Counted from the first letter of the stretch, positions 53,328-63,595 are shown. The stretch is 64,000 nucleotides of DNA from Callorhinchus milii (GCF_018977255.1 NW_024704743.1:3288001-3352000); one strand, 5' to 3'. Notes: generated by a model not told the origin, from the letters alone. Numbers and translations are program-made.

Positions 53328-53343
53328 ATGTACCTGTACACGG
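53328..53343 (+). CDS. Unknown secreted protein, coding exon 1
   Basis: gcaATGTACCTGTACACGG|gtcagt; MYLYT, phase 1. Confidence 0.65.
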
Positions 53344-53479
53344 GTCAGTACTGCTAATCCCTGTTACCGTAGCTGTGCCTGTTATTCCTCTGGGACAATA
53401 ATAATGATACTAATAATCCTTGCTTATCACTTCAGAATTTACTGTAACGTGTAGTGACTGTATGTTGTGCCGGTGAATT

Positions 53480-53830
53480 ATGAGGGGGTTTTGATAGAGT
53501 AGATTGGGAGAAACTGCTTCCACTGATGGGGGGGCGGGGGTGGTGGGTGGGTAACCAGAGGACACAGATTTAAGATAATTGGCGAAAGAACCGGAGGGGA
53601 GACGAGGAGAATTTTTTTTTACACACAGAGAGTTATTACGGTCTGGAATGCACTGCCTGAAAGGGTCGGTGGAAACCGATTCAATAACATCTTTCAAAAG
53701 GGAATTGGATAGATACTTGAAAAGGAAATATTTGCAAGGACATGGGGAAAGAACGGGGGAGTGGGACTGATTGGGCAGCTCTTCCAAATAGCTGGCACCG
53801 AATGGCCTCCTTCTCTGCTGTAATATTCTA
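53480..53830 (+). mobile_element. CR1 LINE 3' end
   Basis: ...SITSFKRELDRYLK... plus the gaatggcctccttct...attctatgat tail. Confidence 0.8.
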
Positions 53831-53948
53831 TGATTTATGATTCTCCGAATGCGGCGGACAATTTGGACACAGAGAAAACCTGTAACAGCCGCATTGTGTA
53901 TGGACACCACCGTGACTCTGCACTAACTGTACTTGTTATTTGTTTCAG

Positions 53949-53981
53949 CCACAGTAATCTTCCTGCTCCTCGGGCAACTGG
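53949..53981 (+). CDS. Unknown secreted protein, exon 2 (signal peptide core)
   Basis: tttgtttcag|CCACAG...CTGG|gtaagt; ATVIFLLLGQL; 33 nt, phase 1-1. Confidence 0.75.
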
Positions 53982-54176
53982 GTAAGTGACTCCAAACTCC
54001 CTTATGATCTGTGCCACTCCGGTCTGATCCCATTCCCTGCTCCCTCCCCATCGTGTCTGTGCTGGTGCTCACTCCCCCACTGGAGCTCTCTACTCGAATC
54101 CCATTGTCTGCTGGGTGGGGCAGTGCAGAGGGAGCTTTACTCTGTCTCTAACCCGTGCTGTCACTAACCTGGGAGC

Positions 54177-55042
54177 GTGGCTGAGCTGGGAATGTGGCGG
54201 GACAGTGTGGCTGAGCTGGGAGCGTGGCGGGACAGTGTGGCTGAGCTGGGAGCGTGGCGGGACAGTGTGGCTGAGCTGGGAGCGTGGCGGGACAGTGTGG
54301 CTGAGCTGGGAGCTTGGCGGGACAGTGTGGCTGAGCTGGAAGAGTGGCGGGACAGTGTGGCTGAGCTGGGAGCGTGGCGGGACAGTGTGGCTGAGCTGGG
54401 ACTGTGGCGGGACAGTGTGGCTGAGCTGGGAGCGTGGCGGGACAGTGTGGCTGAGCTGGGAGCGTGGCGGGACAGTGTGGCTGAGCTGGGAGCGTGGCGG
54501 GACAGTGTGGCTGAGCTGGGAGCGTGGCGGGACAGTGTGGCTGAGCTGGGAGCGTGGCGGGACAGTGTGGCTGAGCTGGGAGCGTGGCGGGACAGTGTGG
54601 CTGAGCTGGGAGCGTGGCGGGACAGTGTGGCTGAGCTGGGAGGTGGCGGGACAGTGTGGCTGAGCTGGGAGCGTGGCGGGACAGTGTGGCTGAGCTGGGA
54701 GCGTGGCGGGACAGTGTGGCTGAGCTGGGAGCGTGGCGGGGCAGTGTGGCTGAGCTGGGAGGTGGCGGGACAGTGTGGCTGAGCTGGGAGCGTGGCGGGA
54801 CAGTGTGGCTGAGCTGGGAGCGTGGCGGGACAGTGTGGCTGAGCTGGGAGCGTGGCGGGACAGTGTGGCTGAGCTGGGAGCGTGGCGGGACAGTGTGGCT
54901 GAGCTGGGGCGTGGCGGGACAGTGTGGCTGAGCTGGGAGCGTGGCGGGACAGTGTGGCTGAGCTGGGAGCGTGGCGGGACAGTGTGGCTGAGCTGGGCGC
55001 GTGGCGGGACAGTGTGGCTGAGCTGGGAGCGTGGCGGGACAG
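54177..55042. repeat. 30-bp minisatellite (about 29 copies)
   Basis: gtggctgagctgggagcgtggcgggacagt units. Confidence 0.97.
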
Positions 55043-59790: not shown

Positions 59791-60894
59791 GTAATGGAGA
59801 CAGCCTGCTCTTGTCAATCTGGGCCTTTCTTCTATTTCTCAATGGAATTGCTTCATAAGGAATCGACTTCCGGTGAAATCCCCACACCATTCCTTGCCAG
59901 CAATCCCGTTCGAGGGGCTTAATCCTATTCTCCTGTTTCTCTGTTTTATTCTGTGAAGTGCTTTGAGACATCTCAATGATGTGATAAGGAGCTATATTGA
60001 ATGTAATGATTATTACTATTAATAACGATTCCATCAGGACAACTGCAAAGTGAAGGAGCCGCCAACCAACTCAACACCTTGGTCTGGCTCAGGTCTCCTA
60101 CTTGTCCTTTGTTCCCTGCACTGCACAAGCGATGGCTGCGCTTCCAACACTACTCTCCGAAGCTTTGGAAATTTCTCCCTCAATCCCTCTGCATCATCCT
60201 CACTTCTAGATCTTCCAGGGCACGGCTGATGACAGCACAGACAGCCTGGCTCATCAGCAGGACCTGGAAGGGCAGACCAGTCACTCAGAGCAGGGATTCA
60301 TCCCACTCATGTCTTGTTAACCCTGCAAGCCAAAGCCCTGACGGTTAGGGTGGTCCTTGCTGGACAAGCAGTGGGAAAGCTTGCCGGACAGCAACATCAA
60401 TTGCAAACTATGCAGTTTTAGATGGTTAGACTTCAGCAGTTTCCCCTGATGCAGACTATGGGTTCCCCAAGCCTTGTCTTTTGCCAAACTGCACCTAATA
60501 GTTTCTGGAATTACGTAAGCACTATGTGTCCCTCCAGGGAGAGAATGCGCATTCCATTCCAACAATCTATCGCTGGGATTTCCATGTGTAGGTGGGATGC
60601 ATGGAATTCCCAGTTTGGTTTGGATACTCTTAAACACGATGATGGGTATCCATATGTGTCAGACACTCGGCTGACACCGCCCCAGAAAAATCTTTCAGAT
60701 CACAACTGAAGACCATCCACTTTGATTGTTTTGTTGGTCTCCTCCCCCCTCTCCCACGACTCGGCCATTGCCAAGCGCTCTGAGACGATGCCCCATGCGA
60801 AGGGCACTGGGCAAGTGCAGGTTGTTGTTGTGGTTGAGTTGGGTAAGTGCAGGTTGATGCTGTGCCCACTGTTGATGTTCTTGTCCTTTCCCAG

Positions 60895-60942
60895 AAACCT
60901 GGAAACCCATCAAGGACCCGTGGGCCATCACAAAGCGCCAAG
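60895..60942 (+). CDS. Unknown secreted protein, repeat exon R4
   Basis: tttcccag|AAACCT...CAAG|gtaatg; ETWKPIKDPWAITKRQ. Confidence 0.7.
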
Positions 60943-62220
60943 GTAATGGAGATAGCCTGCTCTTGTCAGCCTGGGCCTTTCTTCTATTTCTCAATGGAAT
61001 TGCTTCACAAGGAATAGACTTCTGGCGAAATTCCCATACCATTCCTTACCAGCAATCCCGTTCGAGGGGCTCAATGCTATTCCCCCATTTCTCTGTTTTA
61101 TTCTGTGAAGTGTTTTGAGACATCTCAATGATGTGATAAGGAGCTATATTGAATGCAATGATTATTACTATTAATAACGATAGTTCCATCAGGACAACTG
61201 CACAGTGAAGGAGCTCTCCAACCAACTCAACAGCTCAGTCTGGCTATTGCTTGAAAATTTCTATGGGATGAAGGTTAACATCAGTGACACAACTTGAACT
61301 TGTGTTGTGCAGCTGAAGTCATCGATTTCAATGTTCTATTTCTCGTCTTCAAACCTTTCACGTATCGGCACCTCCCTATCTTTCTACCCACTCCTCCACT
61401 CGCTGCCTCTATTCAGTTAGCTCAGGGCTCCTGCTTGTCCTTTGTTCCCTCCACTGACAAGCGATGGCTGCGCATTCAATACGACTCTCCGAAGCTTTGG
61501 AAATTACTCCCTCTGCATCGTCCCCTCCTTCCTCACTTTTAGATCTTCCAGGGCACTGCTGATGGCAGCACAGACAGCCTGGCTCATCGGCAAGACCTGG
61601 AAGGGCAGACCAGTCACTCGGGACTCATCCCATTCATGTCTTGTTAACCCTGCAAGCCAAAGCCCTGACAGTTAGGGTAGTCCTTGCTGGACAAGCAGTG
61701 GGAAAGCTTGCCGGACAGCAACATCAATTGCAAACTATGCAGTTTTAGATGGTTAGACATCAGCAGTTTCCCCTGATGCAGACTATGGGTTCCCCAAGCC
61801 TTGTCTTTTGCCAAACTGCACCTAATAGTTTCTGGAATTACGTAAGCACTATGTGTCCCTCCAGGGAGAGAATGCGCATTCCATTCCAACAATCTATCGC
61901 TGGGATTTCCATGTGTAGTTGGGATGCATGGAATTCCCAGTTTGGTTTGGATACTCTTAAACACGATGATGGGTATCCATATGTGTCAGACACTCGGCTG
62001 ACACCGCCCCAGAAAAATCTTTCAGATCACAACTGAAGACCATCCACTTTGATTGTTTTGTTGGTCTCCTCCCCCTCTCCCACGGCTCGGCCATTGCCAA
62101 GCGCTCTGAGACGATGCCCCATGCGAAGGGCACTGGGCAAGTGCAGGTTGTTGTTGTGGTTGAGTTGGGTAAGTGCAGGTTGATGCTGTGCCCACTGTTG
62201 ATGTTCTTGTGCTTTCCCAG

Positions 62221-62268
62221 AAACCTGGAAACCCATCAAGGACCCGTGGGCCATCACAAAGCGCCAAG
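62221..62268 (+). CDS. Unknown secreted protein, repeat exon R5
   Basis: Identical to R4, splice sites intact. Confidence 0.7.
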
Positions 62269-63547
62269 GTAATGGATACAGCCTGCTCTTGTCAATCTGG
62301 GCCTTTCTTCTATTTCTCAATGGAATTGCTTCACAAGGAATCGACTTCCGGCGAAATTCCCATACCATTCCTTACCAGCAATCCCGTTCGAGGGCCTCAA
62401 TGCTATTCCCCCATTTCTCTGTTTTATTCTGTGAAGTGCTTTGAGACATCTCAATAATGTGATAAGGAGCTATATTGAATGCAATGATTATTACTATTAA
62501 TAACGATAGTTCCATCAGGACAACTGCACAGTGAAGGAGCTCTCCAACCAACTCAACAGCTCAGTCTGGCTATTGCTTGAAAATTTCTATGGGATGAAAG
62601 TTAACATCAGTGACACAACTTAAACTTGTGTTGTGCAGCTGAAGTCATCGATTTCAATGTTCTATTTCTCGTCTTCAAACCTTTCACGTATCGGCACCTC
62701 CCTATCTTTCTACCCACTCCTCCACTCGCTGCCTCTATTCAGTTGGCTCAGGGCTCCTGCTTGACCTTTGTTCCCTCCACTGACAAGCGATGGCTGCGCA
62801 TTCAATACGACTCTCCGAAGCTTTGGAAATTACTCCCTCTGCATCGTCCCCTCCTTCCTCACTTTTAGATCTTCCAGGGCACTGCTGATGGCAGCACAGA
62901 CAGCCTGGCTCATCGGCAAGACCTAGAAGGGCAGACCAGTCACTTGGGACTCATCCCATTCATGTCTTGTTAACCCTGCAAGCCAAAGCTCTGACAGTTA
63001 GGGTAGTCCTTGCTGGACAAGCAGTGGGAAAGCTTGCCGGACAGCAACATCAATTGCAAACTATGCAATTTTAGATGGTTAGACATCAGCAGTTTCCCCT
63101 GATGCAGACTATGGGTTCCCCAAGCCTTGTCTTTTGCCAAACTGCACCTAATAGTTTCTGGAATTACGTAAGCACTATGTGTCCCTCCAGGGAGAGAATG
63201 CGCATTCCATTCCAACAATCTATCGCTGGGATTTCCATGTGTAGGTGGGATGCATGGAATTCCCAGTTTGGTTTGGATACTCTTAAACACGATGATGGGT
63301 ATCCATATGTGTCAGACACTCGGCTGACACCGCACCAGAAAAATCTTTCAGATCACAACTGAAGACCATCCACTTTGATTGTTTTGTTGGTCTCCTCCCC
63401 CCTCTCCCACGGCTCGGCCATTGCCAAGCGCTCTGAGACGATGCCCCATGCGAAGGGCACTGGGCAAGTGCAGGTTGTTGTTGTGGTTGAGTTGGGTAAG
63501 TGCAGGTTGATGCTGTGCCCACTGTTAATGTTCTTGTCCTTTCCCAG

Positions 63548-63595
63548 AAACCTGGAAACCCATCAAGGACCCGTGGGCCATCACAAAGCGCCAAG
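63548..63595 (+). CDS. Unknown secreted protein, repeat exon R6 (gene continues beyond the window)
   Basis: Identical to R4, splice sites intact; no stop codon reached. Confidence 0.7.

Follow-up and report, generated by a model that had tools for sequence, protein, structure and literature searches.

In this work we have examined a 64,000-nucleotide (nt) window of the 991.5-Mb genome of Callorhinchus milii, the elephant shark (C2:3288001-3352000; window position equals C2 position minus 3288000), together with the DNA that follows it, in which an apparently unannotated gene of many small exons begins downstream of SCRIB. Because its promoter box and its first two exons match those of the neighbouring gene, which codes for a chitin-binding mucin with CBM14 (peritrophin-A) domains, the gene is almost certainly an inverted local paralog of that mucin gene. 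A preliminary description of this DNA had proposed that the gene is real and that its product is a secreted prepro-protein with a cleavage site of furin type, and the exon anatomy, the hydropathy and the presence of its own promoter indicate that this is probably what the gene encodes. The same description could not recognize the gene and regarded it as probably lineage-specific; this was not borne out in that form, as the gene would be a local paralog of the CBM14 mucin gene and its last coding exon is CBM14-like. By sequence comparison, the propeptide and the Trp repeats appear to be the only parts without known relatives.

All ten exons previously proposed for the window were recovered at the same coordinates (Table 1). 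With lengths of 16, 33, 66, 60 and six times 48 nt, they join into 154 codons without a stop; all nine internal acceptors are AG, all ten donors are GT and every junction is in phase 1. Since every internal exon is symmetric in this phase, the open join tests the single exons and not the exon chain. The ten exons nevertheless stand beyond chance, because the repeat unit recurs 30 times in tandem with its splice sites kept and because exons 1 and 2 are paired in the neighbour. In total there are 30 repeat exons, 28 of 48 nt, R17 of 46 nt and R30 of 102 nt, and AG and GT are kept in every one of them (30/30); in a genome search the exon-plus-intron unit was found in tandem at this locus only. 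Most copies encode two Trp, Pro, Lys, a run of Thr, a basic pair and Gln per 16 codons. We infer the splicing of the gene from the AG/GT sites, phase and frame. Exons 3 and 4 are the least secure exons: between exon 2 and the first repeat, 4 of 55 AG..GT pairs are symmetric and open, with exon 3 ranking first and exon 4 last. The expected continuation past the window was also found, as ~34 kb of further DNA carries more repeats, a Pro-rich exon, a Cys-rich exon, a stop and an AATAAA. An alternative terminal acceptor at C2:3385168 also leads to a stop within three codons. The resulting gene model has 37 exons and ~640 residues; without R17, 36 exons give 628 open codons.

The neighbour lies tail to tail with the new gene on the minus strand (C2:3390260-3406361) and matches XP_007899433.1, 'mucin-2-like' of Callorhinchus milii, with eight CBM14 domains. 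A genome scan with the Pfam CBM14 profile (PF01607, cut-off 22.1 bits) reported 25 matches among 40 candidates scored, and 12 were over the cut-off: eight in the neighbour, on the strand opposite to the Cys-rich exon and 5.4-18.4 kb from it, and four in two chitinase genes on C19. Exon 2 with its flanks is identical to the neighbour at 46 of 59 nt (next best in 159 kb, both strands, 31/59) and genome-wide the neighbour was the only other match reported, with E 4.5e-8; for exon 1 with its flanks the count is 21/27, the next best being 18/27. Both genes open with exons of 16 and 33 nt, equal in length, phase and flanks, behind the same TATA-like box. The cAMP response element (CRE) and the TATA-like box of the preliminary description are indeed present upstream of exon 1. 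The 8-mer CATAAATA also occurs at 48654 and 51144 in the window, so it is not specific alone; when promoter and exon 1 were aligned with the neighbour's box, 0/2000 shuffles reached the score, with the best shuffle at most one point short. Reading by eye, we also saw a CRE-like half site just upstream of the neighbour's own TATA-like box. The likeness of the exon 3 acceptor to the neighbour was not significant (88/2000 shuffles), and a 33-nt phase 1-1 signal exon is carried by the two C19 chitinase genes as well. Apart from the promoter box and the two opening exons, the genes have in common Thr-rich stretches, a C-terminal module of CBM14 type and phase-1 exon modules multiplied by tandem exon-intron duplication. 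They differ in that the neighbour has eight canonical-scoring CBM14 domains, no propeptide and Trp-free Thr-rich mucin stretches, whereas the new gene has a furin-type propeptide, 30 Trp-rich basic repeats and one degenerate CBM14 domain with extra cysteines.

Some observations concern the neighbour itself. The annotation of XP_007899433.1 joins exon 1 directly to the first CBM14 exon and thereby leaves the protein without a signal peptide, which an unannotated 33-nt phase 1-1 exon at C2:3404835-3404803 (-) would supply. Its exon 3 (C2:3403313-3402607, minus strand; 707 nt) breaks the frame within a 21-nt tandem repeat and holds many more repeat copies than the annotated protein, which points to an assembly indel or a length polymorphism. 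The neighbour also grew by a tandem 1.05-kb exon-intron unit (C2:3392680-3397116, minus strand), with five near-identical CBM14 exons here and four in the annotated protein. Long open frames in this 1.05-kb downstream repeat, considered as candidates, were set aside as wrong frames of the neighbour's CBM14 exons.

The link to CBM14 can also be traced in the Cys-rich exon of the new gene, although weakly. Against a profile of 130 non-Callorhinchus CBM14 domains it scored 13.6 bits, which 0/3000 shuffles reached (reversed, -10.5); it scored 10.4 bits against 23 bony-fish tandem domains (0/3000 shuffles), 11.0 bits against 59 invertebrate domains (1/3000) and 7.3 bits against six distinct domains of the neighbour (0/3000). 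These profiles were built without choosing domains by the Cys-rich exon, and detection with them is weak but mostly consistent. Over all custom profiles the scores ran from -2.6 to 15.7 bits, under the Pfam cut-off. A search of 1.84 billion representatives gave two matches, the better being the lamprey tandem-CBM14 protein XP_078477949.1 with 12 CBM14 domains. In pairwise alignment the conserved terminal Trp, Gly-aromatic, third Cys and hydrophobic-Phe positions of CBM14 align with the exon. Its Trp55 falls on the terminal Trp (CHIT1 Trp465), but multiple alignment shifts the region by four residues, so that the register is uncertain. The equivalent of CHIT1 Cys450 is kept and that of Cys420 lies within one residue. 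Core disulfides of CHIT1 join Cys420 to Cys440 and Cys450 to Cys463, and each cysteine is reported to be critical for binding (PMC4844120).

Several results weigh against this kinship. The lamprey match owes its E of 3e-9 to summing over 11 repeats, its best single domain reaching 27 bits, and the second match, an unrelated FG-GAP repeat protein, was rejected as an artefact of such summing. Pfam CBM_14 gave no match for the exon, and none of the 25 matches in the genome scan falls on it, whereas 9/9 other aligned members match. The score against 20 vertebrate chitinase domains was 1.8 bits (20/3000 shuffles), a profile of the four C19 chitinase domains failed to detect the exon (1479/3000), and at DNA level its likeness to four domains of the neighbour was weak (10, 32, 77 and 351 of 500 shuffles). 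The equivalents of Cys440 (a two-residue gap) and Cys463 (Trp instead) are missing, so the exon does not have the two core disulfides of CBM14; nearby extra cysteines could re-pair. On the distorted beta-sandwich fold of CBM14 the structure models speak neither for nor against: the two had a mean predicted local distance difference test score (pLDDT) of 53.5 and 49.2, and only the hairpin 42-57 reached ~60-74. A fold search with these low-confidence models gave no VIA match at Z>=2 and no Foldseek match at E<=0.001; the CHIT1 entry that came last in Foldseek, at E 9.7, was discounted, as the model had been built on a CBM14 alignment. A second genome locus for the exon, at C2:1886666 (E 1.6), was judged to be chance. 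We call the Cys-rich exon a degenerate, possibly re-wired CBM14-like domain, which by the defining tests is not a member of the family.

What kind of protein would the gene make? The preliminary description had noted a hydrophobic N-terminus and an R-X-K/R-R site, and both hold: residues ~3-20 are the only strongly hydrophobic stretch (9-residue mean hydropathy up to 2.6), and R-K-R-R stands at residues 50-53. After residue 25 the highest 19-residue mean is 0.5, which indicates no transmembrane segment. Given a real expressed gene, its product is very likely secreted. The predicted mature chain has 575 residues without R17 and an isoelectric point of ~10. Its repeat region consists of 28.5% Thr, 13.3% Pro, 12.7% Trp, 11.6% Arg and 10.2% Lys (21.8% Lys+Arg); it thus has the Pro/Thr/Ser-rich tandem repeats of mucin-like proteins, with an unusual content of Trp and of Lys+Arg. 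The model contains neither the VWD assemblies nor the C-terminal cystine knot exon of gel-forming mucins of the MUC2 type. It consists only of propeptide, repeats, hinge and Cys-rich exon, with no GH18 catalytic domain (no GH18 profile search was made over the introns).

We propose, tentatively, that this single-copy gene arose when the gene of a non-catalytic, peritrophin-like mucin that binds chitin was duplicated locally in inverted orientation, that the copy gained a furin-cut propeptide and the new Trp repeats, and that its product acts in a chitin or glycan matrix. The signal peptide would direct the protein into the secretory pathway, and a furin-type convertase would remove the 32-residue propeptide at R-K-R-R. 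The mature chain would then be an extended, O-glycosylated, mucin-like polymer, in which ~60 regularly spaced invariant Trp may stack on a polymer of N-acetylglucosamine (GlcNAc) or on glycans and make cation-pi contacts with Arg and Lys. Such multivalent binding could replace the decayed CBM14, and the cation-pi contacts could also give self-association of the chains, while the Cys-rich tail, with more cysteines than CBM14 needs, might cross-link them. Together with its eight-domain neighbour the product may organize or coat a chitin-containing hydrated matrix, and the most plausible sites would be the gut barrier or the gel of the ampullae of Lorenzini. That the product acts on chitin or GlcNAc glycans seems reasonably likely. 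Against the proposal, 23 dibasic KR/RR-Gln sites could fragment the polymer.

Chitin itself is not foreign to these animals. The genome contains a chitin-synthase-like gene, of which two exons lie at C3:73023014-73025060 (PF03142 matches of 31-34 bits) and whose motifs fit chitin synthase; two weaker PF03142 matches lie on C25 and C2. The ampullary gel of chondrichthyans, namely elasmobranchs and the ratfish, is reported to contain chitin, and it was stated to be unclear how chitin, being insoluble, can form part of a hydrogel (10.1101/687301; see also PMC8379299). Tunicates are reported to have gut membranes that are framed by chitin and carry CBM14 proteins, and ray-finned fish to have chitinous ones; the passages cited do not mention sharks (PMC6109156). 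Perhaps the chimaera duplicate swapped a folded CBM14 array for a disordered, furin-activated Trp-repeat polymer that binds chitin multivalently, through which vertebrate chitin stays dispersed in a hydrated gel such as the proton-conducting one of the ampullae of Lorenzini, and that is possibly released as peptides at the dibasic sites. In this extended form we consider the idea quite unlikely; if true, it would mean a new kind of chitin-binding module made by exon-by-exon duplication.

The dibasic sites raise the question of whether the chain could instead be a multi-copy peptide precursor, the main alternative. KR/RR-Gln sites number 23 in the 29 in-frame repeats. Once furin has cut, PC1/3- or PC2-type cuts at KR/RR, carboxypeptidase trimming and conversion of Gln to pyroglutamate would release ~20 Trp/Pro peptides of 14 residues, almost identical to one another, which would serve in mucosal defence, signalling or aggregation, with the CBM14 remnant as a vestige or tether. 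Cutting all 23 sites would give 11 copies of one peptide and four of another; position 13 is Lys or Arg in 28/28 exons, position 14 is Arg in 23/28 and Gln15 is invariant. The chain thus consists of repeated peptides flanked by dibasic sites, as multi-copy prohormones do, and such precursors are known to carry a single peptide in each exon. We regard this as unlikely, however, since the second basic residue is lost in 5/28 exons (Asn, Pro, His and twice Cys), no repeat site has Arg at P4, and Thr-Thr-Thr stands directly before the site. Furin would not cut without a P4 Arg, so that convertases of the regulated pathway would be needed, and a Thr run before the site is a likely O-glycosylation target which can block cleavage. 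The trimmed peptide would be charge-balanced (E and D against R and K), unlike the cationic Trp/Arg antimicrobial peptides, and the parent gene is a matrix mucin. An intact matrix polymer is therefore the likelier product, and we hold to it with some confidence.

It is also conceivable, though again we find it unlikely, that the product is a structural or adhesive secreted polymer that has moved past chitin binding. It would then coacervate through cation-pi contacts, be cross-linked by disulfides and form part of the egg case, egg jelly, seminal gel or skin mucus, or else serve to take up polyphenols from the diet. The CBM14 remnant without two core cysteines and its gain of a Gly/Cys stretch would suit such a polymer, and so would a composition fit for phase separation, by analogy to mussel and squid-beak proteins (PMC9999432). 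Re-use of peritrophin-A proteins as polyphenol binders is reported for EHEP (10.1101/2023.06.04.543649). However, the exon still has the terminal Trp of CBM14 and its C-terminal hairpin motif, and the core promoter box in common with the chitin-binding neighbour suggests the same site of expression.

Is the gene still under selection? Codons were counted in the 28 intact 48-nt exons, with R17 left out and R30 not included. Both Trp codons, Lys6 and Gln15 are invariant in 28/28, and the pairwise ratio of nonsynonymous to synonymous differences (pN/pS) among repeat exons is ~0.5. Gap patterns number 0 in the 28 exons against 17 in ~230 nt of flank, and on the unit tree codon positions 1+2 are slower than intron sites (0.84 against 1.41 steps/site, p 0.005). 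Other results speak against constraint on an expressed gene: distinct alleles show 8 synonymous against 20 nonsynonymous changes (p 0.30, not significant); the exons have diverged no less than the upstream intron (0.113 against 0.106); second and third codon positions took an equal number of steps (19 and 19); the repeat copies are not independent; and inclusion of R17, in which the assembly lacks 2 nt, would bring a stop at codon 375. A duplicate that has decayed or is silent, its unit expanded by unequal crossing-over without selection and its intactness due to recent copying and gene conversion, would account for that allele test, for the frame-breaking R17, for the degenerate CBM14 and for the weak donor of exon 4. 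We nevertheless think it very unlikely, as AG and GT are kept in all 30 units although the flanks have diverged by 11-15% and the likeness of outer to central units is only 69-85%, and as no in-frame stop occurs in the 28 intact exons, in R30 or in the 204-nt exon. R17 can be skipped with the frame unchanged, and the frame-break in exon 3 of the neighbour suggests that assembly indels occur locally; because that exon is broken here and intact in the annotated protein, the R17 deletion may likewise be an assembly error.

As to transcription, 12 sequencing runs matching the predicted 3' untranslated region (UTR) were listed, none on record as RNA, and five contain the stretch; X1 is guessed to be RNA, and X2-X5 are like genomic DNA by size. 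Outside interspersed repeats, the contigs listed for the sample guessed to be RNA (X1, X12) lie in R30, with depths of 7.05 and 2.5, and in the predicted 3' UTR, with a depth of 3.3; the DNA-equivalent depth from repeat bins is ~0.01-0.05, a rough figure, as depth summed over contigs measures this poorly and X1 was chosen for containing this stretch. X1 and X12 leave the Pro exon uncovered and the Cys-rich exon almost so, and at the 3' end of the gene none of the 15 joints listed of 90 in X1, X12, X2 and X3 falls on a predicted splice junction; both results are uninformative either way. Where the DNA-like runs X2 and X3 cover R30, the Pro exon and the Cys-rich exon, they are listed without any difference. 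We take the X1 contigs, their RNA nature being guessed, as a weak hint of transcription. Taken together, we believe that this is in all likelihood a real expressed gene.

The window starts with exons that, going by their sequence, we take to be those of PUF60 and then of SCRIB, the last coding exon of which lies at ~45861-45956 and its AATAAA at 47449. As the preliminary description held, the new gene is separate from SCRIB: that its exons are alternative 3' exons of SCRIB, or part of an annotated protein, is extremely improbable, for although they follow on the same strand ~6 kb past the SCRIB polyadenylation signal, SCRIB ends earlier with its own stop and AATAAA, the new gene has its own promoter box and ATG in common with its paralog, and protein searches gave no product of this gene, though other C. 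milii proteins including the neighbour were present.

Several known systems resemble the new gene in part. The tandem-CBM14 proteins of lamprey (XP_078477949.1), Polypterus and Channa ('cbd-1-like', 'chondroitin proteoglycan 2-like') are likewise secreted and non-catalytic and combine CBM14 with Thr-rich linkers, but they repeat CBM14 itself (12 in XP_078477949.1), whereas the new gene repeats a 16-residue Trp/Thr/Pro/Lys/Arg motif. Insect peritrophins consist of CBM14 and O-glycosylated mucin domains. With these and the insect intestinal mucins, and with Ci-GFM1 and VCBP-C of the chitin gut barrier of Ciona, the new gene has in common a signal peptide, a mucin-like region and a chitin-binding module, and the proposed role in a chitin-framed matrix (PMC6109156). 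It differs from them by having no VWD, CK or Ig domains, a CBM14 below threshold, a propeptide and Trp-rich repeats. CBM14 tails are standard in fish chitinases (PMC10234404). The GH18 chitinases of CHIA/CHIT1 type, represented by the two C19 genes, also have a signal peptide over two small phase-1 exons, the second of 33 nt, and a Pro/Thr hinge before a terminal CBM14; in contrast, the model of the new gene has no GH18 domain and the C19 CBM14 profile misses its Cys-rich exon. These two genes lie in tandem at C19:2891913-2905817, and in the second a single exon carries three CBM14 domains, a layout also seen in a Heterodontus protein. Actinodins are fin-fibre proteins with a P-x-x-D-P core repeat. 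They too are secreted, with convertase sites and the P-x-x-D-P core in the repeat, but the new gene's repeat is without Cys and its ancestry is different; repeat searches gave no sequence match to any actinodin, and the likeness was treated as coincidence.

When the Cys-rich exon and the repeat were used as queries, neither a protein of this gene nor, beyond generic CBM14, a relative of either came back, no search with the joined protein having been made. The Cys-rich exon gave four candidates in the protein search, none at E<=0.01, and the last repeat exon plus seven intronic codons gave 240, none at E<=0.001. There was no usable match in the ESM Atlas; three PDB sequence matches at E 1.5 were put down to chance, and other genome loci for the repeat (E>=0.11) were rejected. 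A profile search returned 54 CBM14 proteins and no ortholog of the new gene. Among the open-access papers listed we found no description of this gene or of XP_007899433, subscription papers and supplements being outside this scope. Secreted non-catalytic CBM14 mucins are known in lamprey, bichir, teleosts and the neighbour described here; the Trp-repeat variant appears to be new within the collections searched. It appears that the gene was overlooked in annotation and is a candidate component of the chitin-containing gels of cartilaginous fishes. Fishes, including cartilaginous ones, make chitin, and the proteins which organize it are largely unknown; the locus offers two adjacent candidates, an eight-domain CBM14 mucin and its apparently unannotated Trp-repeat sister. 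The gene would also be a clean case in which inverted duplication of an old gene, with one exon-intron unit multiplied 30-fold, has yielded a new repetitive secreted protein. Should expression or binding fail, what is left is an annotation gain of modest interest.

Table 1. Features of the new gene; coordinates are window positions unless preceded by C2.
Feature	Coordinates	Strand	Remarks
CRE palindrome TGACGTCA	53202-53209	+	two occurrences in window; upstream of TATA-like box
TATA-like box CATAAATA	53260-53267	+	sequence match
Exon 1, coding part, 16 nt, signal peptide start	53328..53343	+	13/16 identical to neighbour exon 1
Exon 2, 33 nt, hydrophobic core of signal peptide	53949..53981	+	24/33 identical to unannotated neighbour exon
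Exon 3, 66 nt, signal cleavage region and acidic propeptide	55079..55144	+	best of four symmetric open candidates
Exon 4, 60 nt, basic propeptide end with R-K-R-R (residues 50-53)	56748..56807	+	weak donor; least supported exon
Repeat exon R1, 48 nt, 16 codons	57624..57671	+	splice sites, frame, repeat match
Repeat exon R2	58524..58571	+	splice sites, repeat match
Repeat exon R3	59743..59790	+	splice sites, repeat match
Repeat exon R4	60895..60942	+	splice sites, repeat match
Repeat exon R5	62221..62268	+	splice sites, repeat match
Repeat exon R6, last in window	63548..63595	+	splice sites, repeat match
Intron after R6, start	63596..64000	+	gene runs on past window
Repeat exons R7-R30	C2:3352883-3383334	+	downstream DNA; R17 at 3366527, 46 nt as assembled; R30 102 nt
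Pro/Thr hinge exon, 57 nt	C2:3383826-3383882	+	in frame
Cys-rich exon, 204 nt, 12 cysteines, degenerate CBM14-like domain	C2:3384673-3384876	+	in frame; profile scores
Proposed terminal exon	from C2:3385406	+	stop in second codon; AATAAA at 3385866, ~460 nt on

Further features of the surroundings may be added. Between SCRIB and the new gene a segment of ~450 nt is duplicated ~2.5 kb apart (window 48300-48760 and 50790-51250, read by eye). A 26-bp minisatellite lies just upstream of the promoter (window 52177-52936), and a 30-bp minisatellite of ~860 bp (window ~54180-55045) fills intron 2 up to the exon 3 acceptor. After the pair of chitin-binding genes, C2:3414984-3441152 holds what we take, going by sequence, to be two SLC52A riboflavin-transporter-like genes on the minus strand and the start of an FBXL6-like F-box gene; the two chitin-binding genes thus sit between SCRIB and SLC52A.

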